From positions 1-64,000 of the forward strand of contig CP045477.1 in assembly GCA_009392915.1 (NCBI GenBank): DNA of 64,000 nt, given 5' to 3'. The notes beneath the pieces were generated by a model, which made no database searches, was not told the origin of the DNA, and saw only the letters and a list, made by a program, of their open reading frames with translations. A program made the position numbers and the translations under genes. The stretch comes from Candidatus Forterrea multitransposorum CG_2015-17_Forterrea_25_41 (GTDB lineage Archaea > Iainarchaeota > Iainarchaeia > Iainarchaeales > CSSED10-239). Shown piece after piece: positions 2,211-55,328 of the stretch (within the stretch, counting starts at the first letter, position 1; every line of letters starts with the position of its first letter).

Positions 2211-5093
2211 TTAATCTAACCTCTCTGTTATTTCTTGCATGACCTCTTCTACAAAGAATTGCAATCCATTATATTTTAATATTTTAATAACTTCTTTATT
2301 TGTTTCTTTTTTAATAAGTTCTGCAAATTGCCCTGTTGCATTTCCTTCAATAACTATTATTTTTTTTGCAGATTTAAGTAAGTCTTTTGTTCCAGGATAA
2401 ATTGGATATAATTGTTCATAATGAAGATATTTTATTTTTTTATTATCTATTTTTTCAACAGCTTCTTTAATTGTTTCAAAAGTACTTCCCCATCCAATAA
2501 TAATTATTTCATTACCTTTTCCAATAATTGTTGGCTTTAAACTTTCAAAAGTTATATCTTCTATTCTTTTTAATCTTTTTTTAACCATTTTAATTCTTAA
2601 AGAAAAATCTTCTGTAATATGTCCTGTTTGGTCATGTTCGTCACTATCCACACAAACTAAACCTTTTCCAAAGCCAGGGATTGCTCTAGGGGAAATTCCA
2701 CTTTCTGTAAAAGCATATCTTTGATAATCTTTTTTACTTTCTATAATATATTTTTCTTTATCTTCTTTTATTTCTATTTTTTCAAAAGGATAAAGATTTT
2801 CCATAAAATATTGATCTGTTAATATAAAAACAGGAATTTGGTATTTTTGAGAATCAATAAAAGCTTTGTTTGTAATCTCTACAGCACTTTTTAAATTTTT
2901 AGGAGCATATACAATTCTTGCAAATTCTCCATGTCCAGCGTGCATAACTAAATTTAAATCTTCTTGAGCTGTTCTTGTTGGAAGTCCAGTTGCAGGTCCT
3001 GGTCTTTGAGCTACATGTATGACTAATGGAGTTTCTATCATTCCTGCAAGGCTTACACCTTCACACATAAGTGCAAATCCTCCACCAGATGTGTTTGTAA
3101 GTGATCTTGCACCTGCAAAAGATGCTCCTAAACACATGTTTATTGCTGAAATTTCATCTTCTGCTTGTTCTACAATAATATCAAAATTTTCTCTTAATTT
3201 TGCTAGATTTTGTAAAACACCTGTTGATGGTGACATTGGGTATGCTGATATAAAATCACACCCTCCAGCAATTGCTCCGTATGCTATTGCTTGAGCACCT
3301 GTAAATAAATTATTTAATTTTATTTGTTTATTTTTTTTAATTTTTGGTAAATTTTTAACTATTTTTAAAATTTCTTTTCCTTTTAAAATACCTTTTTCTG
3401 CTGCTTGAATATTTTTTAAAACAATTTCTTTTCCTTTTTTTGAAAAACTTTCTTTTAGTTGTTTTATAAAATATTTTTTATTAATATTTAGTATTCCTAA
3501 AAGAGTTCCTGTTGCAACAGTGTTTGCAAAAACTTTATTTCCTATTTTTTCTGCAATTTCTTTAAAGGAAACATCAATTGTTTTATTTTTAAGCCCTAAT
3601 TTTCTAACTTCTTCTTTATTTCCAATAATAATTGTATTTTCATCAATTCTTTCTTTTAAATGTTCTATAGTATTTTTATCTAAAGCAAGTAAAATATCTA
3701 TTTTTTTTAAATTTCCTCTTCTTTCTTTTTCTGTAAGTCTAATAGATATGGTGTTAACTCCTCCTCTAACTCTTGACATATATTCAGAGTTTGAAGAAAA
3801 GTAAAAACCTTCTTCTTTAAGTATTTTAAGTAAAACATTTTGAACAGATACAAGACCTTGGCCTGCTTCTCCAGAAAGTACAATTGATAATTCTTTTTCA
3901 TCTATTTTTTTATTTTTAATTTCTTTTTTAAAAAGTTCTTTTGTTTTTTCAGTAATTATCTTTGAAAATTCATTTAATTTTTTAAAGTTTTCTTTTTTAG
4001 GAATTCCTGTTGAAATTTCTCCTAAAATAACTTCTGCTTCAAAATTATTTGTAATATTTTCAAATTCTTTAAAGGCTTCCCCACCCCATTCTTTAGATCC
4101 AATAAATCCAATAATTTTTGTTTTTGGTTTTAATTTATTTAAAGTACTAACTGTTGTTGAAACAATAGGGTGAAGCCCACCTAAAAAAGTAGGAGATGCT
4201 ATAATTAAAGTTGACGCATCTACCATTTCAATTGCAAGTTGTCCTATCTCTGTAGTTGTAAGATTATATTCTTTAACTTTATTGCCTTGGTTAATAAGTT
4301 TAGAAGTTAAATATTCAACCATTTTTTTTGTACTTCCGTGCATAGAAGTATACCCAATAATTATTTTTGGTTTGGTTTCTTTTTTTGACCAATTATAGTA
4401 TTTATCAATTATCCAATCAACATCTTGGTATATTTTTCCATGACTTGGAGCTATTATTTTTGGATTATATTCTTTTATTTTTTCTAAGTTTTTAAGAATA
4501 TAATTTCTAAAAGGCATCATTATTTCTGCATAATATCTTTTAGCAGGTAATTCTATTTCTTTTGTATCTTTAACAAATAATTCGCTTGTTGCAAGATGTG
4601 CTCCAAAAAAATCACAAGAAAACAAAATTTTATCTTCTTTTAAAAAAGTAGACATAGTTTCTGGCCAATGAACCCAAGGAGTATAAATAAATTTTAAGGT
4701 TTTATCTCCTAAGCTAATTTCTTCTAAGTCTTTAATAACTTGTATTCTTTTTTCCTCAATTACCATTTCATCTAAAAGTATTTTTTTACAAAGAGGATTA
4801 CAAATTAATTTTGCTTTTGGAAATTTATTTAAAATTATAGGTATTGATCCAGAGTGATCTTGTTCTGCATGATTAGATATAATATAATCTATATTTTTAA
4901 TATTTAATTTTTCTAAGTTTAAAATAAGTTCTTCTGTTTTTGTAATGTCAACAGTGTCTATTAAAGCTGTTTTTTTAGATCCAATTATTAAGTATGAATT
5001 GTAGCTAGTTCCATCTGGAAGATAGATTAGTTCATCAAAAAGCTTTCTATCCCAATCAATGGCTCCAACTGAATATATGTTTTTCTTAATCAT
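2211..5093 (-). CDS. Fusion protein: flavodiiron protein (metallo-beta-lactamase + flavodoxin) fused to 2-oxoacid:ferredoxin oxidoreductase gamma-alpha
   Basis: The N-terminal ~400 aa have the HAEQDH di-iron motif of the MBL fold and a flavodoxin segment (IIGYTSMHGSTKKM). The middle part is PorG-like (LSGEAGQG). The C-terminal ~390 aa are PorA-like (GAQAIAYGAIAGGCDFISAYPMSP). It is a single uninterrupted 960-aa ORF. Confidence 0.7.
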   Translation of the reverse strand: MIKKNIYSVGAIDWDRKLFDELIYLPDGTSYNSYLIIGSKKTALIDTVDITKTEELILNLEKLNIKNIDYIISNHAEQDHSGSIPIILNKFPKAKLICNPLCKKILLDEMVIEEKRIQVIKDLEEISLGDKTLKFIYTPWVHWPETMSTFLKEDKILFSCDFFGAHLATSELFVKDTKEIELPAKRYYAEIMMPFRNYILKNLEKIKEYNPKIIAPSHGKIYQDVDWIIDKYYNWSKKETKPKIIIGYTSMHGSTKKMVEYLTSKLINQGNKVKEYNLTTTEIGQLAIEMVDASTLIIASPTFLGGLHPIVSTTVSTLNKLKPKTKIIGFIGSKEWGGEAFKEFENITNNFEAEVILGEISTGIPKKENFKKLNEFSKIITEKTKELFKKEIKNKKIDEKELSIVLSGEAGQGLVSVQNVLLKILKEEGFYFSSNSEYMSRVRGGVNTISIRLTEKERRGNLKKIDILLALDKNTIEHLKERIDENTIIIGNKEEVRKLGLKNKTIDVSFKEIAEKIGNKVFANTVATGTLLGILNINKKYFIKQLKESFSKKGKEIVLKNIQAAEKGILKGKEILKIVKNLPKIKKNKQIKLNNLFTGAQAIAYGAIAGGCDFISAYPMSPSTGVLQNLAKLRENFDIIVEQAEDEISAINMCLGASFAGARSLTNTSGGGFALMCEGVSLAGMIETPLVIHVAQRPGPATGLPTRTAQEDLNLVMHAGHGEFARIVYAPKNLKSAVEITNKAFIDSQKYQIPVFILTDQYFMENLYPFEKIEIKEDKEKYIIESKKDYQRYAFTESGISPRAIPGFGKGLVCVDSDEHDQTGHITEDFSLRIKMVKKRLKRIEDITFESLKPTIIGKGNEIIIIGWGSTFETIKEAVEKIDNKKIKYLHYEQLYPIYPGTKDLLKSAKKIIVIEGNATGQFAELIKKETNKEVIKILKYNGLQFFVEEVMQEITERLD

Positions 5094-10273: not shown

Positions 10274-11557
10274 TTGTTTTTAAACATTTTTATCTATATA
10301 TTATTTATGTCTTATATCCCTGATTTTCATAAGATTAAATACTTTACAGAAAAGTTTAAAGAATACTATCAAAATAATTATATCTCTTGTATATTGGATG
10401 TTTCAAAAAGAGAGTTTGGAATTGGTACTATACAATCTAAAATAAGTCAAAGACATTTATCTTTTGTATCTTTAGAAGATTTTAATAATTATTTAAGAAT
10501 TACTCCTCCTTTTTATGTTTCTTATTCAACAAGTTATTTTAAATATCCAGATAGAAGACCAATGGATAATAAAATATGGGAAGGTTCAGACATTGTTTAT
10601 GAGTTTGATTCAGATGATTATGATCTACCATGCCATGATAGACATAATACTTGGCAATGTACAAGTGAAGAATGTAATGAATGGGGTTATGGAAATTTAA
10701 CAGAATGCCCTAAATGTTTTTCAAAAACAAAGATTACAGAATGGACTTGTGATGAATGTTTAGGAAAAGCAAAAGAAGATACCTTAAGATTAGTTGATTT
10801 TTTAGAAAAAGAATTTAAATTAAATCCAGCAAGCTTTATTATTAGTTTTTCAGGTGCTAAAGGGTATCATGTAAGAATAACTGATAGAACAATAATTTCT
10901 TTATCTAAACCTGCAAGACTACAGATGATGAACTATATTTTAGCAAATGATTTAGAGCTTGAAAAATTAGGTTTTATAAAACAGAAAAAACTTTGGAAAA
11001 TACCACCTATAAAAGAAGCAGCTGGATGGTCTAAAAAGATTTTACATGGAATAATTGATATTTTTTCTTATGATGAAAAAAAGCTTATTAATTTATTTGG
11101 ACTTTCTCCAAAAAAAGCAAAACTTTTAAAGGATACAAAAGAAGATATTTTAAATAAGATGTATCATAATAATATATTAGTTGCTGATTTTTCTTCAAGT
11201 GATAAATTCTTTGAAGATGTTATAAATCATGTAATAAACAAGACTAGACTTAAAATAGACCCTCAATCATCTTCAGATATTTTTAAGATAATGAGGGTTC
11301 CAGATACTATTCATGGTGGTACTGGTTTTTTATCAACATATATTAAGACAAAAGAAGATTTAATTAATTTTGATCCTTTCAAAGATCCTGTTGTTTTAGG
11401 TACTATGGATCTAAAAAAAATAAAATTATTAAAACCAACACCTAAATTTAGAATAATTGACCAATATTATGGTCCTTATAATAAAGATGAGGTTTTAAAA
11501 CTTCCAGAAAAAGTATCAATGTTTTTAGTTCTTAAAGGGGTGGCAAATTTTGAGTGA
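10274..11557 (+). CDS. priS: DNA primase small (catalytic) subunit PriS
   Basis: PriS blocks: RHLSF, PPFYVSYS, MDNKIWEGSDIVYEFDSDD (catalytic acidic motif), FSGAKGYHVRI, plus a Cys-rich Zn-knuckle insertion. Confidence 0.7.
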   Translation: MFLNIFIYILFMSYIPDFHKIKYFTEKFKEYYQNNYISCILDVSKREFGIGTIQSKISQRHLSFVSLEDFNNYLRITPPFYVSYSTSYFKYPDRRPMDNKIWEGSDIVYEFDSDDYDLPCHDRHNTWQCTSEECNEWGYGNLTECPKCFSKTKITEWTCDECLGKAKEDTLRLVDFLEKEFKLNPASFIISFSGAKGYHVRITDRTIISLSKPARLQMMNYILANDLELEKLGFIKQKKLWKIPPIKEAAGWSKKILHGIIDIFSYDEKKLINLFGLSPKKAKLLKDTKEDILNKMYHNNILVADFSSSDKFFEDVINHVINKTRLKIDPQSSSDIFKIMRVPDTIHGGTGFLSTYIKTKEDLINFDPFKDPVVLGTMDLKKIKLLKPTPKFRIIDQYYGPYNKDEVLKLPEKVSMFLVLKGVANFE

Positions 11558-12116
11558 AGATTATAGTTTAGATTACGATGAATTAAGAAAAATTTATAGA
11601 CTTGAAACAAAGTCTCCCAAACTTACAAAATTAAATACTGATTTTTATAAGGAACTTAAAAAATTTCTTTCAGATGAAAGAAAAAAATATACTTCAGAGA
11701 TTGAAGAGTCTTTTTCTCATGCCACTATAAAAAAGTTTGAAACTTTAAAAAAAATGGTTGAAAAAATAAGAGAAATAAGAATGAAAAAATGTCTTAACCT
11801 TTGTTTAATGTATAGTAGAACAAATGATTTTGAAGAAGAAGGTTTAATTGATTTTGAAATTGATTTTGCAAAAGGTGTGATTAAATTAATTGATAAACAA
11901 ACAGAATTTTCACAAAATGTTTTTGGACTTTCTAAAAAAGCTAAAAAAATTGAAAATCAAAATCTTTGTAAAGTAAAATTTTTAGAGGAAGTTCCAACAT
12001 TTATTGGTGCTGATTTAAAGGAGTATGGTCCTTTTGAAAAAGAACAGGTTTGTGAGATTCCTGAAGATATGATTAAAATATTAGAATCAAAAAATCTTAT
12101 TAAAAAAATAGATTAA
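11550..12116 (+). CDS. GINS subunit-like protein (Gins15/Gins51 type), putative
   Basis: 188 aa, alpha-helical N-terminus typical of GINS. It sits immediately downstream of, and overlaps, priS; archaeal gins15 is classically co-operonic with priS. Confidence 0.4.
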   Translation: MSEDYSLDYDELRKIYRLETKSPKLTKLNTDFYKELKKFLSDERKKYTSEIEESFSHATIKKFETLKKMVEKIREIRMKKCLNLCLMYSRTNDFEEEGLIDFEIDFAKGVIKLIDKQTEFSQNVFGLSKKAKKIENQNLCKVKFLEEVPTFIGADLKEYGPFEKEQVCEIPEDMIKILESKNLIKKID

Positions 12117-12132
12117 AAAGAGTTGATAATTA

Positions 12133-12897
12133 ATGGTTGATTTTCCAAATATAAACGATGTGGTAATTTGTAAAGTTACAAAAATAGCTGATTTTGGTGT
12201 TTTTGCAGAGCTTTTAGAGTATGATAATATGGAAGGGTTTGTGCATATTTCACAAATATCTTCTACATGGATAAAAAATATTCATAACCATGTAAAACAA
12301 AATCAAATAAGAGCTGCAAAAGTTTTAAAAGTTGATGAAGAAAAAAAACATATTGATATTTCTTTTAGTAGGATCACAGCTGCAGATGAAAAAAGAAAAA
12401 TTTCTGAATATAGATTATTTTTAAGATCTCAAAGTCTTTTGGGTGTAATTGCTCAAGAAATTGGTGAGTCTCAAGAAAAAATTTGGGAAGAAGTTGCAGA
12501 TCCAATTATTGAAGAAGAAAATTCTCTTTATAAAGGATTTTTAAATATCTTAAAACATGGTGGAGATTATTATTCTCAAATTGATCCTAAATATCATAAA
12601 GTTTTATTTGAAATTTTAGATAAAAATATTACTTTGAAAGATAAAGATATTTTAGGAATTATGACAATTACTTCAAGTAATTCAAATGGTTTTGAAAATA
12701 TTAAAAAAGTACTTTCTGAAGTTACTGAAAAATATCCTGACTGTAGAATAATTTATTTAGGTCCTGGAAAATATGAACTTAAAGTAACTTCTAAAGAATT
12801 TAAAACTTCTGCAAAAAAATTTGATTTAATTGTAGATGAAATTTCTAAAGGATTAAAGAAACATGCTTCTTTTGAAGTTGTTAAAAAAGATTCTTAA
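12133..12897 (+). CDS. eif2a: Translation initiation factor 2 alpha subunit (aIF2-alpha)
   Basis: N-terminal S1 domain (VICKVTKIADFGVFAEL...GFVHISQISS), helical and C-terminal alpha/beta domains, ~254 aa. Confidence 0.75.
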   Translation: MVDFPNINDVVICKVTKIADFGVFAELLEYDNMEGFVHISQISSTWIKNIHNHVKQNQIRAAKVLKVDEEKKHIDISFSRITAADEKRKISEYRLFLRSQSLLGVIAQEIGESQEKIWEEVADPIIEEENSLYKGFLNILKHGGDYYSQIDPKYHKVLFEILDKNITLKDKDILGIMTITSSNSNGFENIKKVLSEVTEKYPDCRIIYLGPGKYELKVTSKEFKTSAKKFDLIVDEISKGLKKHASFEVVKKDS

Positions 12898-12911
12898 ATA
12901 TTTATATAAAG

Positions 12912-13730
12912 GTGAGTTGTAATATGGTTACAGAAATAAAATTAATTAAAAACATAAAAACTTTAAAAAACCCAGTTCTTTTTGTAGGACTTCCTGGAAT
13001 TGGTTTAGTTGGAAAAATATCTGTTGATTATTTAATTAAAGAATTATCTCCAAAACCAACATTGATTGGAAAAATATTTTCTGATTCATTTCCTCCTGCA
13101 GTTCACGAAAAGAATTCTGTTTTAGAGCTTATTTATGATGAAATTTATTTATATAAAACAAAAACAAAAGATTTTTTATTTATAGCAGGCCCTGTACAAC
13201 CTCCTTTAACAAACACAATTAATAGTGATCAACATTATGAATTTTCAGAAAAAATTGCTTTATTTGCAAAAAAACATAAAATTAAGGAAATATATACTTT
13301 TGCAGGTCTTAATATAGGTGATAAAAGAATAACTTCTAAACCAAAAGTAATTTGTGTTTCTACAGACTTAAAAACTAAAGAAAATATTTTAAAAAAGAAA
13401 ATATCAAATCTTCATTTTCAAGATAAAGGACAAGATGCTTTAATCTCTGGAGTTGCAGGTTTACTTTTAGGTATTTCTTTTGAATCTTATAAAATCCCAG
13501 GTGCTTGTTTAATGGGTGAGACAAATAGTAAATTAACTTATGGAGATCCTTCTTCTGCAAAACAACTTTTAGAAGTAGTTGATTCTTTATTTAAATTAAA
13601 AATTAATTTGAAAAAAATAGATGAGAGTGCAAAAAAGATTGAAAAATCATTTAGTGAAATTTCAAAAAATTTAGAACAAATTTCTCAAAAACAAGAAGGT
13701 CCTTCAACTCAATCTAATTATATAAGATAA
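12912..13730 (+). CDS. PAC2-family proteasome assembly chaperone (PbaA/PbaB-like)
   Basis: N-terminal VLFVGLPGIGLVGKIS motif characteristic of the PAC2/DUF75 family. Confidence 0.6.
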   Translation: MSCNMVTEIKLIKNIKTLKNPVLFVGLPGIGLVGKISVDYLIKELSPKPTLIGKIFSDSFPPAVHEKNSVLELIYDEIYLYKTKTKDFLFIAGPVQPPLTNTINSDQHYEFSEKIALFAKKHKIKEIYTFAGLNIGDKRITSKPKVICVSTDLKTKENILKKKISNLHFQDKGQDALISGVAGLLLGISFESYKIPGACLMGETNSKLTYGDPSSAKQLLEVVDSLFKLKINLKKIDESAKKIEKSFSEISKNLEQISQKQEGPSTQSNYIR

Positions 13731-13751
13731 TTTTTTTGGTGAAAAATAAAT

Positions 13752-15299
13752 ATGGTCTTTAAAGAAAATGAACTTGGAATTGTTGTTTCAACAATGGATT
13801 CACCTTCAACTTCAAAGATCACTTTTGTTTGTACCAAAAAAGTTTATAAAGGACAGTATGTTCAAATAGAATACTCTCAAGGTAGTTTAATTGGGCTTGT
13901 AACAGATGTATCTTCTCAGAATAGATATTTTGAAAATAATGAATCTGTAAAAGAATTTGAAAGTTCTGATTATAATATCAATGATCAATTTCCAACTAGT
14001 GATTGGGAATTTTTAATTGCAAATATAAAGCCTTTAGGGGTTCTTTCAAAAGAAAATTTTTTTGTAAGATCTACTCTTCCAGTATCTCCTGGTTCAAAAG
14101 TTTTAATTTGTGAAAAAGAAGTTTTATTTAAATTTCTTCATTTAAAAAAGAATGGACTTAATCTTGGACAAATTGAATTTCCTACTCTTCCTGTTACTTT
14201 TTGTATGGATAGACTTTTACAAAAACATTTAGCAATTTTAGCACAGTCTGGGGCAGGAAAAAGTTATTTAACCTCTGTTGTTTTAGAAGAACTTTTAGAC
14301 AGAACTAAAGAAGAAGGGCAAGTTGCAATTTTATTATTTGATGTTCATGGAGAGTATTCTCATTTTTCACACCCTATAAAAGATTCTTCTCAACATAAAG
14401 ATTATTCTTCAAAGACAATAAAGATTAATTCTTTTGAAATAAAGATTGGAGTTTCTACTCTTTCTTTAAATTTCTTTTCATCTCTTTTACCTTCTTTAAG
14501 TTCTGCACAAAAACGTGAACTTGGAAGTGTTTTAAAAAAATTAAATGAAGATAAAAAAAATGGTTTAGGTCCTTTTGATCTAAAAGACATTATTAAAGAA
14601 ATTGAAAGACAAGAAGTTAAAGAAAATGTTTCAAAACCTTTAATTAATGCTTTAGGTGAACTTTTAGATTATCATCTTTTTGCAAAAATAGATTCACCTT
14701 CAATTTTTGATATTGTAAAACCTGGAAAATTAACCATTATTGATTTATCTAGAGAGATAAATCTTAAAAAGAAACAATTAATACTTTATTATTTTGCACA
14801 TAAACTTTTTTACTCAAGAACAAATCCTTCTTTAAATGTACCTCCATTCCTTTTAGTTGTTGAAGAAGCCCATCAATTTGCTCCAGAAAGTGCAAGTAAA
14901 GATAGAGCTATGGCAAAATCAATTTTAGAAACTATTGCAAGAGAAGGTAGAAAGTTTGGATCTTGTCTTTGTTTAATTTCTCAAAGACCTGTAAAATTAT
15001 CTACCACTGTGCTTTCACAGGCAAACACACATATAATTTTAAGAATAACTAATCCTTATGACTTAAAACATATAGGAGAATCATCTGAAGGACTTGATTC
15101 TAAATCAGTAGAAATGATAACTTCTTTAAGAGTTGGAGAGGCTTTAGTTGTTGGTGAAGCTTCATCTTATCCTGTGTTTTTTAAAGTTAGAAAAAAATAT
15201 TCTCAAGATTCTCATTTAGATGTTTCTCTTTCAGGGCTTGCTAAAAATTATTTAAAAAATACTTCTAATCAAGAGAAAGATATTGAAGGCTTTTTATAG
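13752..15299 (+). CDS. herA: HerA-type DNA helicase/translocase ATPase
   Basis: HAS-barrel N-terminus, Walker A AQSGAGKSY, Walker B LLVVEEAHQF, and LISQRPVKLSTTVLSQANT of the HerA/FtsK superfamily. Confidence 0.75.
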   Translation: MVFKENELGIVVSTMDSPSTSKITFVCTKKVYKGQYVQIEYSQGSLIGLVTDVSSQNRYFENNESVKEFESSDYNINDQFPTSDWEFLIANIKPLGVLSKENFFVRSTLPVSPGSKVLICEKEVLFKFLHLKKNGLNLGQIEFPTLPVTFCMDRLLQKHLAILAQSGAGKSYLTSVVLEELLDRTKEEGQVAILLFDVHGEYSHFSHPIKDSSQHKDYSSKTIKINSFEIKIGVSTLSLNFFSSLLPSLSSAQKRELGSVLKKLNEDKKNGLGPFDLKDIIKEIERQEVKENVSKPLINALGELLDYHLFAKIDSPSIFDIVKPGKLTIIDLSREINLKKKQLILYYFAHKLFYSRTNPSLNVPPFLLVVEEAHQFAPESASKDRAMAKSILETIAREGRKFGSCLCLISQRPVKLSTTVLSQANTHIILRITNPYDLKHIGESSEGLDSKSVEMITSLRVGEALVVGEASSYPVFFKVRKKYSQDSHLDVSLSGLAKNYLKNTSNQEKDIEGFL

Positions 15300-15341
15300 C
15301 AAAGATGTTTTTATATATCTTATGATATAATATTATATAGT

Positions 15342-15809
15342 ATGTACAAAGTATCGTGGACAGAGTTTGAAAGTCTAGCAATTGATCTTACTAAAAAGAT
15401 TAAATCTTCAAATAAAAACTTTTCATTTATAGTTGGGGTTAGTAGAGGTGGTCTTTTACTTTCAAGATTATTATCTTCAACTTTAGATTTACCTATGGGT
15501 GTAATTGCAGCAAAACATGTAGATGGAATTTATCATGTTGATAATTATATATCAACAATATATGATGTTGAAGGGGATATTCTTTTAGTTGATGATGTTA
15601 TGGATCAAGCTTCTGTTAATGTAATTTCAAAAATAAATAAAAATTATAAAAATATAAATTCTATAACTTCAGCATGTGTTTTTTATAAAGGTACAGAAAA
15701 AAGTTTTAAACCTGATTTTTATACAAGTAAAGTTGATGATTTTATAACCATTGTTTTTCCTTATCAAGAAAAATCAATTTTGAAAAATTTAGAAAACTGT
15801 GAGGATTAA
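15342..15809 (+). CDS. Type I phosphoribosyltransferase (purine PRTase-like)
   Basis: PRPP-binding motif ILLVDDVMDQAS and VGVSRGG loop. Confidence 0.55.
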   Translation: MYKVSWTEFESLAIDLTKKIKSSNKNFSFIVGVSRGGLLLSRLLSSTLDLPMGVIAAKHVDGIYHVDNYISTIYDVEGDILLVDDVMDQASVNVISKINKNYKNINSITSACVFYKGTEKSFKPDFYTSKVDDFITIVFPYQEKSILKNLENCED

Positions 15810-15817
15810 GATTAATT

Positions 15818-16279
15818 ATGAAAAAAAAAATGTCTAATAAACAAAATTTAATAATAGCTTTATTAATTATTTTAATAATTTTAGTAATATTTTTTATTGT
15901 TATATTTTCTGCAAATATTTTATATAGTAATATAAAAGAAAATAATTTAGATAATATAGATTATAATTTAACAATTTCAAAAGTAGATTTTAATTCTGAT
16001 AGGTTAGTAAATGTAGAAAATGATGTGAATTTGTCAGAATTAAATGAATTTACTTTACCAGAAAGTAAGCTTATTAATGAATATTTAATCACAAGTATAA
16101 ATATTTCTGATTTAAGAAATAAATATTCTTTTTTATTTGATGAAGCCTTAGTTTCTTCTTATGGTTATCTTCAAACAGAAAAAGGAGATTATATTTTAGA
16201 ATATAAAGATTATATTTTAGTTTTTAATAAAGATGAAAATCAAACAAAAAGTATCTGGATGATTGAATATTTAGAATAA
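15818..16279 (+). CDS. Hypothetical membrane-anchored protein
   Basis: N-terminal transmembrane helix; no recognisable domain. Confidence 0.3.
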   Translation: MKKKMSNKQNLIIALLIILIILVIFFIVIFSANILYSNIKENNLDNIDYNLTISKVDFNSDRLVNVENDVNLSELNEFTLPESKLINEYLITSINISDLRNKYSFLFDEALVSSYGYLQTEKGDYILEYKDYILVFNKDENQTKSIWMIEYLE

Positions 16280-16297
16280 TTTTAAATTTTAAAAAAT

Positions 16298-18844
16298 GTG
16301 TTTTTTATGGATGATGCAAATTTAATGCTTTTAAAAAAGAAAGTAAAAGCTATAAAACAATATAAAGGCCAAGGTACTCAACTTATAAGTCTTTATCTTC
16401 CACCTGATGCAGATAGAAGTTCTGCAACAAAACAATTAACTGATGAAATGAGTCAATCTTCAAATATTAAGAGTGCTCAGACTAGAAAAAATGTACAAGC
16501 AGCTTTAAAAAGAATTATTAATTATTTAAAACAAATTGATTTTAAACTTCCTGAAACAGGTTTAGTTTTATTTTCTGGAGATGTTTCAACTAATCCTTCT
16601 AAATCAGATGTAATTTTACTTGCAATTGCACCTCCTGTAAGACTTACAACTAAGCTTTATTGGTGTGATTCAACATTTCACATAGCTCCTTTAGAAGATA
16701 TGGCACAAACAGATGATGTTTATGGTTTAGTTGTTCTTGACAAACGAGAAGCAACAGTTGCTATTTTAAGAGGAAAATCTAAAGAAATTCTTTTTTCAGA
16801 AACCTCAAATGTTCCTGGTAAAACAAAAGCCGGGGGGCAATGTTTAAAAGATGCTTTTGTATCTTTATCTGATGGGAATTTAATAGATGTTAGTGAAATT
16901 TCTAAAAAGGATATTCTTTCTTCTATGAATTTTAAACAAAATAAATTAATTAATTCTAAGGTTTTAGATAATTGGTCAGTTTCTAAAAATAAAACATATA
17001 TTATTAAAACAAAAGCTCCTGGTACAGAAATAAAAGCTAGTGAAGATCATATATTTTTTGTTTTAACTCCAGATGGTGTTGTTGAAAAAGCTTCAAAAGA
17101 TTTAACTTTAAATGATTATTTGTTATTTCCAGAAAAATTATCTTATAAAAATAAAATTTGGTCTTTTGATACTAAAAAATATATTTCTAAATTAAATAAA
17201 CCTTCTATAAAGATACCTATAAAACTTAATAATGTATTTGCTAAATTTTTAGGTTATTTATTAGGTGATGGTTCTATTGAAACTGATAGATTAACTTTTT
17301 ATGAATCTAGAAAAGATGTTATTTTAGAATATAAAAAGTTATTTGATAAATATTTTAATGTAAATTCTTCTTTAACTTTTAGAGATTCTAAAAATTATTA
17401 TCAATTAAGAGTTAATTCAACTGCTCTTGTAAGATTAATTAAAGAAGAATTTAAGGAAATTAAAAAAGCAAGAGATTCTTTAATACCTTCTAAAATATTA
17501 ACTTCTTCTAATAAAATATTAGCTAATTTTTTAAAAGGATTTTATGATGCTGAAGGTTATATTAATACTTCTAGAAAATCAATAGATATTGGAATAAATA
17601 ATAAAAAAATTGCACAACAACTTCAATTATCATTATTAAGATTTTCAATTATTGGATCTTTACAAGAATATGATAATAAACAAAATCCTTATACAAATAA
17701 CCATAGGTTTGTGATTTCAATTTCTGATAAAGAGTCAATAGATTCTTTTGAAAAAAATATTAATTTTACTTCTTTTGAAAAGCAAAAAAAAATAAAAAAA
17801 ATTCAAAAATTAAAAACAAACATGAGTTTCTCAAGAACACTTCCTGTATATGGTAGTCAGGTTAGATCTGTTGTTACAAAACATGGTTATAATTTAGAAC
17901 TTTTCCCAAAAGTGAGTAGTTTTTTCAATAATAATAGAATGCTTAGTAAATGCTTTTTTAAAAGTTCTGTTTTAGATTATGTTAAAGATAAATCTCTTTT
18001 AAAAGATTTAATTAAATTTTATAATATGCCATTTTTTGCTGCAAAGATAAATTCTATATTTATTGAAAAAAAGAAAACAATTATGACAGACATTTCTGTT
18101 GCTAATAAATCTTTTATTGCAAATGGATTAATTGTTCATAATTCAGCACATAGATTCGAAAGACTAAGAGATAAATATGAAGAAGAGTTTTATAAGAGAG
18201 TAGGTTCTAAAGTAAATACTGCTTTTGTAGATCTTGATAATTTTAAAGGAATGATTGTTGGTGGTCCTGGACTTACTAAAAATGAATTTTTAGAAATTGG
18301 TGATTTAGACCACAGAATAAAAGATAAAGTTTTAGGAACTGTAGATACTTCTTATACAGATGAGTCAGGTATAAAAGAAGTTTTAGATAAATCTGAAGAT
18401 ATTTTAAAAGAAACTGGTTTAGTTCATGAAAGAAAATTAATTAATAAGTTTTTTGAAGACTTAGCAAAAACAGGCCTTGCAAATTATGGTTTTCAAGATG
18501 TAATTGATGCCTTAAATATTGGTAAAGCTTCAACTGTTTTAGTGTCTGAAGGTTTAGAATGGACTGTTTTAATTTTTAAATGTTTATCAGACAAATCTAG
18601 ATTTATAAAAATTGTTAAAGATAAACATGAAGTTTCTGATACTATCTCAAAATTTGAAAATTCTCCAACAGATTGTCCAGAAGGTAAAGCAGAACTTGTT
18701 GAAGAAGTTGATATATATGATTATTTTATAGATATTTCTAAAAATACAAGTGCAAAAGTTGAACTTATTTCTATTGAAACTTTAGAAGGTAAACAATTTT
18801 TTGAAACTTTTGGAGGGCTTGCAGCTTTCTTAAGATATAGGTAA
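16298..18844 (+). CDS. prf1: Peptide chain release factor aRF1 interrupted by an in-frame intein
   Basis: The exteins (181 + 233 aa) have the aRF1 architecture, including the catalytic GGQ followed by SAHRFERLR. A 434-aa insertion begins with Cys and ends with His-Asn, followed by Ser. Confidence 0.8.
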   Translation: MFFMDDANLMLLKKKVKAIKQYKGQGTQLISLYLPPDADRSSATKQLTDEMSQSSNIKSAQTRKNVQAALKRIINYLKQIDFKLPETGLVLFSGDVSTNPSKSDVILLAIAPPVRLTTKLYWCDSTFHIAPLEDMAQTDDVYGLVVLDKREATVAILRGKSKEILFSETSNVPGKTKAGGQCLKDAFVSLSDGNLIDVSEISKKDILSSMNFKQNKLINSKVLDNWSVSKNKTYIIKTKAPGTEIKASEDHIFFVLTPDGVVEKASKDLTLNDYLLFPEKLSYKNKIWSFDTKKYISKLNKPSIKIPIKLNNVFAKFLGYLLGDGSIETDRLTFYESRKDVILEYKKLFDKYFNVNSSLTFRDSKNYYQLRVNSTALVRLIKEEFKEIKKARDSLIPSKILTSSNKILANFLKGFYDAEGYINTSRKSIDIGINNKKIAQQLQLSLLRFSIIGSLQEYDNKQNPYTNNHRFVISISDKESIDSFEKNINFTSFEKQKKIKKIQKLKTNMSFSRTLPVYGSQVRSVVTKHGYNLELFPKVSSFFNNNRMLSKCFFKSSVLDYVKDKSLLKDLIKFYNMPFFAAKINSIFIEKKKTIMTDISVANKSFIANGLIVHNSAHRFERLRDKYEEEFYKRVGSKVNTAFVDLDNFKGMIVGGPGLTKNEFLEIGDLDHRIKDKVLGTVDTSYTDESGIKEVLDKSEDILKETGLVHERKLINKFFEDLAKTGLANYGFQDVIDALNIGKASTVLVSEGLEWTVLIFKCLSDKSRFIKIVKDKHEVSDTISKFENSPTDCPEGKAELVEEVDIYDYFIDISKNTSAKVELISIETLEGKQFFETFGGLAAFLRYR
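16841..18142 (+). mobile_element. Intein with a LAGLIDADG homing-endonuclease domain inserted in aRF1 between Gln181 (of GGQ) and Ser
   Basis: N-terminal Cys, C-terminal VHN with a +1 Ser, and two LAGLIDADG-type blocks (FLGYLLGDGS and LKGFYDAEGYI). Confidence 0.75.
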
Positions 18845-18856
18845 GGTGTTATTTTT

Positions 18857-19363
18857 TTGATAAAGACATTTAAAGCAAGAAAGATTACAAAAACTAATAT
18901 TGGTTCTAAATGTGGAATCGTAGATATTCGTAAAAGAATTCTAGAAAATAAAACTTATTCTATTTCCTATACTATAAAAGGTAAGTCTTTAGAACTTAAT
19001 TTTTTAAAACGATATCGAAAATCTAATCTTAGTGATTTTAAAAATATTTATTCTGATCTTTTAAATATTGCAAAAGAAAAAAAAGTTAAAAAAATATATA
19101 CTAGTTCTTGGGTATTTTCAGAAACTAAAGGTTTATCTGAAAGATTAGGTTTTAAACTTGTTAAGGGTACTGATAAAAAATTAAATCTAATTAAAGAAAA
19201 ATATCCTGATTATAAAATTATAGGTATTGAACAAAGATTTTCTACAGATTCAATAAATTATGGTGTAATTCCTTGTTTAGTTTTAGAAAATAAATCTTTA
19301 AAAAAAGAAGTTATAATAAATATGGATAAAAATATGCTCCCAATATATGTAAAGGAACTTTAA
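18857..19363 (+). CDS. Hypothetical protein
   Basis: 168-aa ORF with no recognisable motif. Confidence 0.25.
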   Translation: MIKTFKARKITKTNIGSKCGIVDIRKRILENKTYSISYTIKGKSLELNFLKRYRKSNLSDFKNIYSDLLNIAKEKKVKKIYTSSWVFSETKGLSERLGFKLVKGTDKKLNLIKEKYPDYKIIGIEQRFSTDSINYGVIPCLVLENKSLKKEVIINMDKNMLPIYVKEL

Positions 19364-19366
19364 ATT

Positions 19367-20638
19367 ATGGATTATAGATATGTTACAGATACAAAAGGTT
19401 TAGGTGGAAGAATAAAACAACTTCCACAAGATTTCATTGTTGAGGAAATTGGTTTAGATTATGAAACTTCTGTAAAATACTTGCCTGATAAAAAAATAGA
19501 AACTATTGATTGGGAAAAAATATTTGAAAATAAAGAAGAAGGAAAAGATCATTTAATTTTAGATTTAGAAAAACATAATCTTTCTACTATGCAGGCAATT
19601 TCTCAAATGTCAAGATTTTTAAGACTTTCAAAATCAAGATTTGGTTATGCTGGATTAAAAGATAAAAGATCTATTTCTTCTCAAAAAATTTCTCTTTATA
19701 ATCCTGAATTGGAAAGACTTTCAAAATTTTATTTTAAAGACATTAAAACATATAACCCTTTTTGGTCTTCTAAAAAAATAGATATTGGTGATTTAAAAGA
19801 AAATAGATTTATTATAACTATTAGACAAATAGAAGGATTATCAAAAGAAGAAATAAAAGAAATTATTGAAACAAATTTTCTTAAAATAAATCAAAAAGGA
19901 TTAATTAATTATTTTGGTGAACAAAGGTTTGGAGGAGCAAGGGAAGTTACTGCTAAAGTTGGAAAACATTTAATATTAAAAGAATATAAAAAAGCAATTA
20001 TGCTATACTTAACCTCTCCTTCTCCTTATGAAGATCAAGATTTAAAAAATGCAAGAGAAGATATTTTAAAAACAAATGATTTTAAAAAATGGGCTTCTTC
20101 TTTTCCATCTAAATCTGGTTTTGAAGTTCCTATTTTAAATCATTTAGCAATTAATCCTGAAGATTATTTAGGAGCTTTTAAATCTCTTTCAAAATCTATG
20201 CAATATTTATTTATTCATGCTTATCAATCTTATTTGTTTAATGAAATTATTAATTATAGAATTGATAAAGGTTTATTTTTAAAACCATTAGATGCTGATA
20301 ACGTTATAAATGGTGTTTTACATTTACCTTTATTTGGTTATGATTCTAAATTTTTAGATGGTAGGGCAGGAGAAATTGAAAAAGAAATTTTTAAAAGAGA
20401 AGGAATTGATTTTAGACATTTTTTTAATAAAGATTATTCTGTTCTTTCTTGTAGAGGAGACTTAAGGCCAGTTATTACTTTTCCAAAAGAATTAAAGTTA
20501 ATTTCTATAGAGGAAGATGATTTAAATCAAGAAGAAATTCCAGGATCAAAAAAAGCAACAATTTCTTTTATTTTAGATAAAGGGCAATACGCCACTGTCT
20601 TGATTAGAGAGATTATTAAAAAAGAAAATATTGGTTAA
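19367..20638 (+). CDS. truD: tRNA pseudouridine synthase TruD/Pus7-type
   Basis: TruD family motif GLKDKRS (catalytic Asp) and typical length. Confidence 0.6.
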   Translation: MDYRYVTDTKGLGGRIKQLPQDFIVEEIGLDYETSVKYLPDKKIETIDWEKIFENKEEGKDHLILDLEKHNLSTMQAISQMSRFLRLSKSRFGYAGLKDKRSISSQKISLYNPELERLSKFYFKDIKTYNPFWSSKKIDIGDLKENRFIITIRQIEGLSKEEIKEIIETNFLKINQKGLINYFGEQRFGGAREVTAKVGKHLILKEYKKAIMLYLTSPSPYEDQDLKNAREDILKTNDFKKWASSFPSKSGFEVPILNHLAINPEDYLGAFKSLSKSMQYLFIHAYQSYLFNEIINYRIDKGLFLKPLDADNVINGVLHLPLFGYDSKFLDGRAGEIEKEIFKREGIDFRHFFNKDYSVLSCRGDLRPVITFPKELKLISIEEDDLNQEEIPGSKKATISFILDKGQYATVLIREIIKKENIG

Positions 20639-20803
20639 AATAAATATATTTGTTTTTTAGTGGAAAAATAATTTATGGTCCAAAAGGAATTCAGTGGATT
20701 TATAAACCTCCATTATATCTAAAGGACATAAAAAAAAGTACTTTGGAGATTTAACTTAAAATCTAAATAATATAATAAATTGAATTGATATAAATAAAAA
20801 GGA

Positions 20804-21088
20804 GTGATGAAAAATATGAAAAAAGAAGTTTTAGAAAAACTAAATATATTATTAACTAGTGCTTTTGGTTTAGTTGCTGCTCTTGCATGGAATGATGCTA
20901 TTAAAGCTTTGTTCGTTGCTATTTTTGGACAAGCTGGAACAATAATTGCAATGTTTTTATATGCTATAGTGGTTACAATAATAGTTGTTTGGGTTACAAT
21001 GAGACTTTCTATTTTTTCTGAAAAAACTGGTGACTTAGCAAATAAAGTTGTAAGTACTGCTAAAAAACCTTTAAAGAAAAAGAAGTAA
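20804..21088 (+). CDS. Small membrane protein (DUF-type, two transmembrane helices)
   Basis: Two hydrophobic helices, a lysine-rich C-terminus, and a strong upstream RBS (aaaggagtga). Confidence 0.35.
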   Translation: MMKNMKKEVLEKLNILLTSAFGLVAALAWNDAIKALFVAIFGQAGTIIAMFLYAIVVTIIVVWVTMRLSIFSEKTGDLANKVVSTAKKPLKKKK

Positions 21089-21126
21089 CTTATTTTTTAA
21101 AAAAAGTGAAAAAGTAAAGAAAAATT

Positions 21127-23268
21127 TTATTCTTTCTTTATTTTTTCATTTATTGTTTTTTCTTGATATTCAATTTTTAATTCTTTTAAAGTATCAAGTC
21201 CAAATTTTCCAACTAAATTAATAAATTTGTCAGTATTATTTTTAATATCGTTAGCGCTCTTTATACCATTATTAAAAAGTCTTCTAGCTCTTACTCTTCC
21301 AATATTTCTAAGTTCAACTAATGGAACAAGTTCTTGTTTAATACCATACTTAATCCTAGAAAGAAGATTTGAATATTCTTTTATAGTTATAATACTTGAT
21401 TTAGTGTGTTTTAAAAGTTCAATTGTAGAGTGACAGATCCATTCTGCTCTTGATATTAAATCTCTTATTTGTCCTGGTGTGGTATTATACTCATCAATAA
21501 TGTAGTTTTCTTCTTTTTCTTCAATCCAGTCAGCTATAAGTTTTGTTAAATATATTTTTTGTAAAAGATAAATATCTTCATAATCAAAGAAAATATTAGG
21601 TCTAATTTCTTCAAAGATTGTAAATATATTATTTTCTTTTTCTTGTTTATATTTTAAATATGGATACATTTCAGATGTGTTTGAAATAGTAAATATTTTT
21701 TCCATAATTTTAGTATCTTTATTTTTTTTAATCTCAAGATCTTTTAAAATATTATTTGCAGATAATGGATCAATGTATAAATAACATACTTTTTTACCAA
21801 GAGAAGTTATTAAAAAATCATTTTCATTTTTCTCTAAAAAACCATATTCATAGAATTCATAGACAATATCTTGTATATTTTTTCTAATTTCATGATTATC
21901 TCCATATGTGAAATAGTAAAATGTTTTTGATAAATAATTAATAAGTTCTTCTATACTTTTTAGTTCATTAACTAAAATCATAGAAAGCAAATGTCCTCTA
22001 AGAATATTTATTTTAGAAAGTTGAGAATCTATATTGGAAGGACCAGAAATAATATATGTGTTGTATATCTTTGGAATATCACTTTCTTTATTTACAACAC
22101 AAATAGCTTCTCCTTTTTTATCATATTTAGGTCTTCCTGCTCTTCCTGCCATTTGTTGAAATTCATTAACCGGTATTGGAACCATTGATCCTTCTGAAAA
22201 TCTAAACACACTATTAATAACAACTCTATATGCAGGTAAATTAATTCCTGCTGCAAGAGTTGGTGTTGCAAAAATTGCTTTAATATTTCCTTTTTTAAAA
22301 TTATTTTCAACAATTTCTCTTTGTTTATAAACAAGTCCTGCATGATGGAAAGCAGACCCCATTAAAAGAGAAAGAGAAAGTTCTTCACATTGTTTTGTAG
22401 GATTTTCTAAGGCTTCAAGAGCTTCTTTTGAAATTTGTCTTAGTTTTTTATATTCTTCTGGATTTATATGGGTTGATATTATTTTTCCATATTTTTTAGC
22501 AAACGACATTGCATTTTTTCTAGATGCACAAAAAACAATAATTTGTTTTTCTTTTTTTAAAGTGTCTCTAATGATTGATCCTAAATTAATGTTTTTAACT
22601 GCAAGAGAAGTTAAATCTTCTTTTCTATCTTCAAAATAAATAGAGTCGTTATAAAAAACCCCAGTCTCTAAAGGAACTGGCCTATAATTACTTAAAACTA
22701 GTTTTGCAGAAAGCCAATCAGATATTTCTTTTGAATTTTTAATAGTTGCAGATAAACCTAAAAGAGTAATTTCCTTGTAGTTATGTTTTAGTTGTGTTAT
22801 TATTACTTCTAAGGTAGATCCTCTGTTTGATCCAAGTTCATGTATCTCATCAATGGTTAAAAGTCCAACTTGTTTAAGCCAGGATGGCTCATGTCTTATG
22901 ATTGAATCAAATTTTTCGTATGTTAAAAATAAAACATCATAACTTTCAAGATATTTATTACTTGAATCAAGATCTCCTGTTGAGAGTGCTATTTTTACAT
23001 CAAGTTCTTTTGCAAACTTTCTTTTAGTTTCAAGATAATGTTCTGTAGTTAATGCTTTTAAAGGAGATATATATATTACTTTTTTTTTCTTATTTAAAAG
23101 ACAATCAAGCATATACATTTCAAAGACTGTTGTTTTACCTGAAGCAGTAGGTGTTGTTATGAGTGTATTTTCTCCTATGTTTTCTTTTGCTAAGATTTGC
23201 ATAGGGTTAAGTTTATCATAACCGTTAATCTTTAAGATTTTTTGAATAATTTCTTCTTTTGAATGCAT
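21127..23268 (-). CDS. Ski2/Hel308-like superfamily 2 DNA/RNA helicase
   Basis: Motif I TPTASGKT, DEIH Walker B (LLTIDEIHEL), SAT motif, QMAGRAGR motif VI, and a winged-helix/ratchet C-terminal region. 713 aa. Confidence 0.75.
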   Translation of the reverse strand: MHSKEEIIQKILKINGYDKLNPMQILAKENIGENTLITTPTASGKTTVFEMYMLDCLLNKKKKVIYISPLKALTTEHYLETKRKFAKELDVKIALSTGDLDSSNKYLESYDVLFLTYEKFDSIIRHEPSWLKQVGLLTIDEIHELGSNRGSTLEVIITQLKHNYKEITLLGLSATIKNSKEISDWLSAKLVLSNYRPVPLETGVFYNDSIYFEDRKEDLTSLAVKNINLGSIIRDTLKKEKQIIVFCASRKNAMSFAKKYGKIISTHINPEEYKKLRQISKEALEALENPTKQCEELSLSLLMGSAFHHAGLVYKQREIVENNFKKGNIKAIFATPTLAAGINLPAYRVVINSVFRFSEGSMVPIPVNEFQQMAGRAGRPKYDKKGEAICVVNKESDIPKIYNTYIISGPSNIDSQLSKINILRGHLLSMILVNELKSIEELINYLSKTFYYFTYGDNHEIRKNIQDIVYEFYEYGFLEKNENDFLITSLGKKVCYLYIDPLSANNILKDLEIKKNKDTKIMEKIFTISNTSEMYPYLKYKQEKENNIFTIFEEIRPNIFFDYEDIYLLQKIYLTKLIADWIEEKEENYIIDEYNTTPGQIRDLISRAEWICHSTIELLKHTKSSIITIKEYSNLLSRIKYGIKQELVPLVELRNIGRVRARRLFNNGIKSANDIKNNTDKFINLVGKFGLDTLKELKIEYQEKTINEKIKKE

Positions 23269-37617: not shown

Positions 37618-37699
37618 GCAGAGGTGGCGGAGTGGTCAAACGCGCCAGCCTTGAGAGCTGGAGCCTTGCGCTACACGAGTTCGAATCTCGTCCTCTGCG
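37618..37699 (+). tRNA. tRNA-Ser (anticodon TGA), type II with long variable arm
   Basis: Acceptor gcagagg/cctctgc, anticodon stem ccagc/gctgg with loop cttgaga, T-loop ttcgaat. No encoded CCA. Confidence 0.8.
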
Positions 37700-37730
37700 C
37701 TTTATCTTTTAAAATATAGGAATTTTTATT

Positions 37731-38063
37731 ATGATTAAAGAAAACATTTCTTTTCAAGATTTTTTAAAACTTGATATAAGAATTGGAACAATTGTTGAGG
37801 CTGAAGCTGTTGAGGGTTCTGATAAATTAATAAAATTAATAATTGATTTTAAAGATTTTAAAAGACAGATTTTAGCTGGTATTAAAACAAAATATCAACC
37901 AACTGATTTATTAAACAAACAAATTCCTGTTATTGTAAATTTAGAACCTAGAAAAATGATGGGTTTTGAAAGTCAAGGAATGATCTTAGCTGTTGGAGAT
38001 AAAACTTTAGATGCTTTACTTTTACCATCTGAGCCTGTATCGGAAGGCTCGATTGTACACTAA
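37731..38063 (+). CDS. tRNA-binding domain protein (Trbp111/CsaA/EMAP-like)
   Basis: LDIRIGTIVEAEAVEGSDKLIKL OB-fold tRNA-binding signature. 110 aa. Confidence 0.65.
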   Translation: MIKENISFQDFLKLDIRIGTIVEAEAVEGSDKLIKLIIDFKDFKRQILAGIKTKYQPTDLLNKQIPVIVNLEPRKMMGFESQGMILAVGDKTLDALLLPSEPVSEGSIVH

Positions 38064-38084
38064 TTTTTTTTTAAAACTAAAAAT

Positions 38085-38166
38085 GCAGAGGTGGCGGAGT
38101 GGTCAAACGCGCAAGCCTGGAAAGCTTGAGCCTCGTGCTACGCGAGTTCGAATCTCGTCCTCTGCG
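38085..38166 (+). tRNA. tRNA-Ser (anticodon GGA)
   Basis: Same scaffold as the upstream tRNA-Ser; anticodon loop ctggaaa. Confidence 0.8.
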
Positions 38167-38197
38167 CTTTTTTCTTTTTTAATTTAATATTTATTTT

Positions 38198-38286
38198 GCA
38201 GAGATGGCGGAGTGGTCAAACGCACAAGTTTCGAAAACTTGATTAAGGTTTTTTCCTTTACATGAGTTCAAATCTCATTCTCTGCG
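38198..38286 (+). tRNA. tRNA-Ser (anticodon CGA)
   Basis: Acceptor gcagaga/tctctgc, anticodon loop ttcgaaa, long variable arm, T-loop ttcaaat. Confidence 0.75.
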
Positions 38287-38462
38287 TAGCTGGTTTCGGT
38301 CAGCTAGCACCCAATGATTTTGCGTTTGTTAACGCTTATTTAAACTTTCTTTTTAAAAGAAGTGATTTTCCCCCAAAACTTTTTTTCTTTAAAAATTGTG
38401 TTTTAAAAATTTTTAATCTATTTTATATCTATTTAAAATACTTTTGCCTCTCTTTAATATTT

Positions 38463-55211: not shown

Positions 55212-55328
55212 GTTAGCGGCCATAGGGATGGAGAAACACCTGGACCCTTTCCGAACCCAGAAGTTAAGTCTATTGCCGTTTTAGTTCGCTGTTAGTTCAT
55301 GCTAGTAGCGTCTTTAAAGCTGCTAACA
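55212..55328 (+). rRNA. 5S rRNA (divergent, unlinked to 16S/23S)
   Basis: 5' gcggccatag...ccgaacccagaagttaag conserved 5S blocks. Terminal helix ttagcggc/gctgctaa with one G·U pair. The middle/3' part is AT-rich and atypical. Confidence 0.55.

Follow-up and report, generated by a model that had tools for sequence, protein, structure and literature searches.

Which kind of element interrupts the gene of the archaeal class-I release factor aRF1 directly behind its catalytic GGQ motif, and can a complete release factor still be made from such a gene? The question is raised by a stretch of 64,000 nucleotides (nt) of Candidatus Forterrea multitransposorum CG_2015-17_Forterrea_25_41 (assembly GCA_009392915.1, contig CP045477.1, positions 1 to 64,000), here referred to as the window. 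Our analysis argues, with a probability of roughly 85%, that a genuine class-1 intein, competent for splicing and equipped with a LAGLIDADG endonuclease, lies in the window aRF1 between Gln178 and the Ser of SAHRFERLR.

The host gene is located on the plus strand within an open reading frame (ORF) without internal stop spanning from 16298 to 18844. The original prediction had given its length as 848 amino acids (aa). The open frame is indeed that long when counted from the GTG at 16298. However, the homologues in databases, one of which is nearly identical and deviates in just one residue of the intein, begin with the ATG at 16307 and have a length of 845 aa. Therefore the precursor gene is more likely to span 16307..18844 (845 aa plus stop), with the GTG as an alternative in-frame start.

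The N-extein (aa 1-178; 16307..16840, plus strand) comprises the N domain of aRF1 and the beginning of its M domain, as found by Pfam, translation and alignment to the Halobacterium aRF1 structure 4af1. The translation shows a NIKS motif at aa 53 (16463-16474), a YWCDSTF motif at aa 118 (16658-16678) and GGQ at aa 176-178 (16832-16840). Both motifs of stop-codon recognition, NIKS and YxCxxxF, are thus kept. The C-extein (aa 613-845; 18143..18841, plus strand), delimited by the same means, starts with the Ser+1 nucleophile (SAHRFERLR) and contains the remainder of the M domain plus the C domain. Conceptual excision of the insertion resulted in a 411-aa aRF1, in which the Pfam domains eRF1_1, eRF1_2 and eRF1_3 follow end to end. 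TIGR03676, the NCBIfam equivalog model of aRF1, scored 416 bits on the precursor; on the spliced product the score rose to 444 bits (cutoff 234.7). Over residues 12-413 the spliced product aligned to 4af1 with E=5e-80 and without a gap at the junction (GKTKAGGQSAHRFERLR in the window versus GKQRKGGQSAQRFARLR in 4af1). The identity of the host and the restoration of its GGQ-SAHRFERLR loop, both proposed earlier, are borne out by these data. Among the 172 window ORFs neither a second aRF1 nor a Pelota nor a second intein was found, as phmmer searches with extein and intein matched only the gene itself. Pfam scans of the large window ORFs likewise gave no other intein.

The insertion occupies positions 16841..18142 of the plus strand (1302 nt, 434 aa). 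It extends from the Cys1 codon TGT (16841-16843) to the codon AAT of the terminal Asn (18140-18142), with the junctions KTKAGGQ|CLKDAF and GLIVHN|SAHRFERLR. To the base, these are the borders of the in-frame insertion put forward by the original prediction, with Cys directly after GGQ and IVHN|SAHRFERLR at the end. The GC content of the intein is 21.0% compared to 30.9% and 27.5% in the two exteins. Its assignment to class 1 is based on Pfam, NCBIfam, a search of the Protein Data Bank (PDB), an AlphaFold model and Foldseek. When the insertion was analyzed alone, Pfam recognized Intein_splicing (E=7e-18, 65 bits versus a cutoff of 35.8) and two stretches of LAGLIDADG_3 (E=2e-18).

The N-terminal part of the Hint domain spans 16841..17170 (plus strand), as indicated by the translation, by column counts in an alignment of 90 relatives and by the beta-strand structure of the model. 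Translation and column counts locate block A, CLKDAFVSLSDG, at 16841-16876 and block B, EIKASEDHIFF, with the invariant residues Ser67 and His70, at 17027-17059. The TxxH signature of block B reads S67-E-D-H70 here, with Ser replacing Thr. The homing-endonuclease domain of the LAGLIDADG type together with a C-terminal helical region follows at 17171..18025 (plus strand) and is supported by Pfam, the model, conservation and the ratio of nonsynonymous to synonymous substitutions (dN/dS). In agreement with the two LAGLIDADG blocks reported before, Pfam and the translation place motif 1, FAKFLGYLLGDGS, with the catalytic D143 at 17237-17275 and motif 2, FLKGFYDAEGY, with the catalytic E238 at 17528-17560, both on the plus strand. 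The helices end with these acids (LGYLLGD143G and KGFYDAE238G). The C-terminal part of the Hint domain with blocks F and G, TIMTDISVANKSFIANGLIVHN, is located at 18077..18142 (plus strand); according to translation and column counts it carries the invariant residues D417, F425, H433 and N434.

Within the 90-sequence alignment Cys1, Gly12, Ser67, His70, Asp417 (block F), His433, Asn434 and Ser+1 were invariant (90/90). Cys1 and the terminal Asn, on which the earlier proposal had been made to depend, are therefore present in the window copy and in every aligned relative. D143 was kept in 87 of the 90 sequences, and E238 in 80 with an Asp in 6 more (86/90), so that both positions were acidic in about 96%. 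Judged by its residues, the insertion appears to be a canonical class-1 intein with a two-motif LAGLIDADG endonuclease that retains all splicing residues and both catalytic acids.

An AlphaFold2 model of the entire precursor was built from the same alignment. Its mean predicted local distance difference test score (pLDDT) was 87, and most of the intein scored above 90. The modelled endonuclease consists of two alpha-beta-beta-alpha-beta-beta-alpha halves, assigned by DSSP as H309-321/E/E/H336-350/E/E/H372-381 and H402-416/E/E/H433-446/E/E/H475-484, with beta-rich Hint segments on either side. With Foldseek, the model matched structures of aRF1 (4af1) and eRF1 as well as solved endonuclease-bearing inteins, the latter at E=1e-24.

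A search with the spliced extein retrieved intein-free aRF1s with identities of 92, 87, 80, 79, 77 and 74%. The one with 92% is located on a contig (L001) that shares the gene order of the window: HerA-like ATPase, phosphoribosyltransferase, a small unannotated ORF, aRF1, a 168-aa ORF and TruD. After removal of 16841-18142 the window gene aligned to this ortholog with 0 gaps and 86.6% nt identity, and the 15 residues on either side of the junction were identical. At the empty site the DNA of L001 reads AAAGCTGGTGGTCAA|TCAGCACATCGTTTTGAAAGA across the junction. The alignment of the exteins to aRF1, which had been suggested as a check, is thus ungapped against both 4af1 and a syntenic intein-free ortholog. 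The window therefore contains a precise 1302-bp insertion in an otherwise ordinary orthologous gene.

The 168-aa ORF between aRF1 and TruD (18857-19363, plus strand) had no Pfam match. It was present in the closest relatives L001, L004 and L006 and missing from L002, L003 and L086, where TruD directly follows aRF1.

The intein of the window is not a one-off but belongs to a large DPANN-wide family at one site. In total, at least 160 aRF1 proteins with an intein at the same position were found. Searching with the precursor gave at least 120 aRF1s. Every one of them reads GGQ|C at its N-terminal junction, and the C-terminal junction was HN|S in 118 of 118 retrieved aRF1s where it could be parsed. 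When the intein alone was used as query, an exhaustive HMMER search resulted in 2432 hits at E<=1e-3. Of the best 150 cluster representatives 63 were aRF1-borne relatives, and the more distant hits were inteins of MCM, RadA, GlmS and terminase. A scan of the GTDB species genomes yielded at least 167 matching stretches, labelled as Iainarchaeum, Diapherotrites, Woese-, Pace-, Nano-, Aenigmat- and Micrarchaeota and Nanohaloarchaea. Among the matches listed the best one was a metagenome-assembled genome (MAG) of Iainarchaeum with 82% identity, which assigns the window to the Iainarchaeota (DPANN). A few matches came from bins labelled Methanosarcinales. In the one bin of this kind that was checked (L043), junctions and intein length match those of the protein P0060, whose extein groups with the Woesearchaeota-type aRF1s.

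The inteins at this site fall into several length classes. The majority has about 500-511 aa, followed by a class of about 425-439 aa including the 434 aa of the window, one of 271-275 aa and one of 130-141 aa; a single over-long intein of 572 aa was present in L075. The two largest classes differ by a 72-aa helix-turn-helix (HTH) module of the XRE type (PF01381, PF12844, PF13560), which most aRF1 inteins (e.g. P0010, P0011, P0017, P0058 and P0026) carry after the N-terminal part of the Hint domain and before the first LAGLIDADG helix. Presumably it serves as an extra DNA-recognition module. The window intein lacks it cleanly, with the gap located between the codons for ...KKYIS and KLNKPS (~17185), and all nine of its closest intein-bearing relatives share the 434-aa form. 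Since other HTH-less inteins show different deletion borders, the module was lost repeatedly. Half of the endonuclease is deleted in the inteins of 271-275 aa (L076, P0023), and those of 130-141 aa (L074, L079, L081, L082, L083, L085) are natural mini-inteins consisting purely of the Hint domain. Some full-size members have a dead active site with a D-to-V or E-to-K exchange (P0011, P0018, P0019). In a neighbour-joining tree of the exteins occupied and empty alleles were thoroughly interleaved, also within the clade of the window, and the empty ones include the intein-free alleles of 92% and 87% identity. All stages of the homing cycle are thus represented in the family: full-size intein, degenerate endonuclease, mini-intein and empty site.

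Evidence for recent movement was obtained from a near-identical strain. Its contig (L004; JGI 3300025126, contig Ga0210025_1000144) was compared with the window over positions 10307-21800. There were 0 differences from 10307 to 16380, so that the two are identical upstream of the gene over at least 6 kb. Within the gene the exteins were 95.5% identical at the nt level and the inteins only 82%. Conversely, the intein of L004 shared 95% identity with that of an Iainarchaeum MAG (L007) at a synonymous divergence (dS) of 0.19, compared to 83% (dS 0.77) for the exteins. The informative sites of L004 are window-like up to 16855, L007-like from 16861 to 18121 and window-like again from 18152. Both switch points are located at most 20 nt from the intein borders at 16841 and 18142. 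Assembly chimerism is unlikely, because both alleles recur in independent samples: the L004 allele in a second sample (L005) with 1 nt different and the window allele in a third (L090) with 2 differences in 3470 nt. The intein cassette was therefore swapped at its borders, irrespective of the host gene, and the element is, or recently was, mobile. When compared to Woesearchaeota-type proteins across phyla, the intein had identities of 47-53% and the host 40-42%, so the intein is sometimes the more conserved part.

The divergence between L004 and the window already starts within the N-extein at 16381 and runs at 3-20% to the end of L004, including a highly divergent stretch with insertions and deletions around 20500-20800. 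The two long JGI contigs with the gene (L004, L005) both terminate a short distance downstream. The locus resembles a boundary of strain-level recombination or variability. The step from 100% to 95% identity at 16381 may reflect a co-conversion tract of homing or a larger block of strain-level recombination, the latter because the divergence persists to the end of L004.

In its anatomy the element matches a standard class-1 intein. On the grounds of sequence, structure prediction and comparison, standard four-step splicing is therefore the best-supported mechanism, and standard homing is the best-supported account of its spread. The 845-aa precursor would be made first. Cys1 would then undergo an N-S acyl shift leading to a thioester at the Gln178-Cys1 bond, and by transesterification the N-extein would be moved onto the hydroxyl of Ser+1. 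Cyclisation of Asn434 would free the intein, and an O-N shift would leave a 411-aa aRF1 whose GGQS loop is intact. Once freed, the 50-kDa intein would be expected to cleave aRF1 alleles that lack it at the sequence coding for GGQ|S, and repair of the double-strand break would copy the intein into the cut allele. In eukaryotes and archaea the Gln of the GGQ motif receives an N5-methyl group from Mtq2-Trm112; as it is the -1 residue of the intein, methylation presumably takes place after splicing. Owing to the position right after the catalytic Gln, splicing would also be an obligatory maturation step of the release factor. The unspliced precursor is probably inactive in termination, since in ribosome-bound eRF1 structures (5lzu, 3jag) the GGQ loop must enter the peptidyl-transferase centre, which a 50-kDa domain at its tip would block.

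Several points weigh against a splicing and homing intein in the window. Splicing and DNA cleavage by this copy are both deduced from comparison, and all sequences were derived from metagenome assemblies. Furthermore, the loss of the 72-aa HTH module in the window copy and its closest relatives could weaken DNA recognition, and instead of homing driven by the endonuclease, ordinary homologous recombination via the conserved flanks could account for the cassette exchange. The HTH loss leads to the alternative that the intein splices while the endonuclease of this copy is inactive, i.e. a vertically inherited passenger decaying toward a mini-intein. Apart from the clean absence of the module, the uniform 434-aa form of the nine closest intein-bearing relatives would fit this, as would the clearly dead endonucleases of the family, caused either by substitutions (P0011, P0018, P0019) or by large deletions (P0023, L076). 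We nevertheless consider it unlikely, given that D143 and E238 are intact in the window copy, that 434-aa cassettes were exchanged between lineages and that intein-free alleles are nested in the 434-aa clade. Moreover, the intein had a dN/dS of about 0.2 and its endonuclease part one of 0.08-0.22 among the 434-aa inteins (exteins 0.03-0.14), and such purifying selection is consistent with a functional enzyme.

A further alternative is a regulatory role of the intein, in which splicing would be conditional (e.g. on redox state or temperature) and would tune active aRF1, termination and ribosome recycling. A precursor interrupted right after the catalytic Gln should be kept from the peptidyl-transferase centre, as deduced from 5lzu and 3jag, the element persists in many DPANN lineages, and even endonuclease-free mini-inteins are retained at the site. 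On the other hand, the sequence gives no hint of a sensor, the presence and absence of the intein among very close relatives shows that the host does well without it, and the pattern fully fits a selfish homing cycle. Co-option of the element as a regulator is thus very improbable. Only slightly more credit is given to the general notion that DPANN archaea use conditional aRF1 splicing as a post-translational throttle on termination and ribosome recycling, which we regard as quite unlikely. Finally, the metagenomic origin of the data is the sole point in favour of a non-splicing disruption, i.e. a pseudogene, or an assembly artefact, and the probability of either is negligible. The frame is open over 2.5 kb, the dN/dS of the exteins indicates strong purifying selection, the splicing residues are invariant in 90 relatives, and the window itself has no second aRF1. 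In addition, the same allele was assembled from an independent sample (2 mismatches in 3470 nt), as was that of L004, and more than 160 homologous cases are found in separate assemblies. Pseudogene and chimera were rejected on the basis of the open frame, the selection on the exteins and the independent assembly of both alleles.

A close solved or named relative was searched for in the PDB, and only distant VMA inteins and PI-PfuI were retrieved. The closest solved relatives by sequence are the Thermococcales VMA inteins TliVMA and PhoVMA (7qss, 7qsu, 7qst; E=4e-11). They are the closest by fold as well, with target-normalised template modelling scores (TM-scores) of 0.73-0.77 (7qss 0.77), and share the architecture of a Hint domain plus double-LAGLIDADG endonuclease. 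However, their host is the V-ATPase A subunit, the identity is only about 15%, and exteins and insertion site are unrelated. The same fold is found in PI-PfuI (1dq3), PI-TkoII (2cw7) and PI-SceI (1vde, 1lws), which have in common with the window intein a Cys or Ser at position 1, the block B His, the terminal His-Asn, the +1 nucleophile and the LAGLIDADG endonuclease. Here, too, the hosts differ: ribonucleotide reductase, DNA polymerase and VMA1, respectively. Accessory DNA-binding modules are present as a stirrup domain in PI-PfuI and as a DNA-recognition region in PI-SceI. Where these inteins have modules of their own, most aRF1 inteins use the XRE-type HTH, whereas the window copy has none.

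The nearest relatives outside aRF1 (P0288, P0298, P0296, P0294 and P0291), drawn from a library of 1.8 billion proteins, are metagenomic archaeal inteins in MCM, RadA, GlmS and the terminase large subunit with 28-30% identity, and both their hosts and insertion sites differ from the aRF1 case. The MCM proteins P0288 and P0298 have an HTH_3 match too, but it is located after the best LAGLIDADG_3 match, whereas the aRF1 inteins have theirs ahead of the endonuclease. In NCBIfam the insertion matched PRK14845 best (60 bits), the model of the intein in IF-2/aIF5B. This host is an essential translation protein as well, yet its intein splits an initiation GTPase and not a class-I release factor.

To our knowledge, an aRF1 intein is not among the classical InBase alleles. 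In the literature that was searched, which did not extend to InBase, no description of an aRF1 or eRF1 intein was found. Text searches of Novikova 2015, of the Anaeramoeba intein paper and of the Bodo saltans virus paper gave nothing relevant to an aRF1 intein. The element is already present in many public MAGs and has partly been recognized by automated annotation; the JGI pipeline labelled a homologue as 'peptide subunit release factor 1 (eRF1)/intein/homing endonuclease'. What appears to be new are the host and the insertion site, while class-1 inteins and LAGLIDADG endonucleases as such are well known.

Known inteins are mostly found in proteins of replication and repair and in ATPases. 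Components central to transcription and translation carry few inteins (Novikova et al., PMC4760082). An intein in the catalytic loop of a class-I release factor extends the host range to the termination step, and it does so across most DPANN lineages, with an exchange between strains caught in the act. The related inteins of several sizes at one site offer a natural set for studying the homing cycle. The mini-inteins of 130-141 aa could serve as compact splicing domains in protein engineering.

Many homologues from NCBI MAGs were named only 'LAGLIDADG family homing endonuclease', 'helix-turn-helix domain-containing protein' or 'hypothetical protein'. An essential release factor therefore seems to be missing from the annotation of those genomes, and caution is required with annotation pipelines, as many intein-bearing aRF1 genes are given the first two of these names in place of aRF1.

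A variation of the GGQ motif itself was found outside the window in many aRF1 proteins of DPANN archaea. In 17 intein-bearing homologues GGW, GGM, GGF or GGS (GGS once) replaced the universally conserved GGQ before Cys1, mostly with Ser-Gln after the intein. When the spliced variant exteins were used for searching, 117 of the 120 closest intein-free aRF1-like proteins were without the Gln as well. The intein as cause of the change was thus ruled out. The variants include the proteins P0386-P0505, P0190, P0212 and P0226 and the loci L031, L034, L056, L086 (6001-7251) and L088 (6001-7212); many of the intein-free ones are labelled as Aenigmatarchaeota aRF-1. The variant motif is usually followed by Ser-Gln, leading to GGxSQ as in Vms1-like release factors, and it is possible that the Gln has been relocated by two positions. 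In about 20% of the variants no Gln is present at either position. The variant codons TGG, ATG and TTC are not reached in a single step from CAA or CAG, and the change occurs at several separate places in the extein tree. The variants keep the three eRF1 domains and YxCxxxF, and NIKS is mostly kept (12 of the 17 intein-bearing ones). The archaeal factor aVLRF-1 is without a Pelota-type C domain (PMC6514570). An assignment of the variants to aVLRF-1, as suggested by GGxSQ, was ruled out by the retained C-terminal eRF1_3 domain and the mostly retained NIKS. One GGF gene is located directly upstream of TruD; aRF1 adjoins TruD in L002 as well and is one small ORF away from it in the window.

Some further features of the window were observed. 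An ORF of 959 aa (2211-5093, minus strand) combines an N-terminal ODP/metallo-beta-lactamase domain with a gamma-type POR and an alpha-type POR_N domain. Such a fusion to pyruvate:ferredoxin oxidoreductase domains is an unusual combination. Besides the 515-aa HerA-like gene at 13752-15299, a protein of 1003 aa with a HerA/DUF87 ATPase core is encoded at 41014-44025 (plus strand), and a 688-aa Kelch-repeat/PKD protein at 45399-47465 (plus strand). A stand-alone 5S rRNA gene is located at 55212-55328 (plus strand), with neither 16S nor 23S within the 64 kb. Three tRNA-Ser genes with the anticodons TGA, GGA and CGA lie within 670 bp at 37618-38287 (plus strand). The third of them, 91 nt long according to ARAGORN, overlaps the start of the ORF at 38262-39584.

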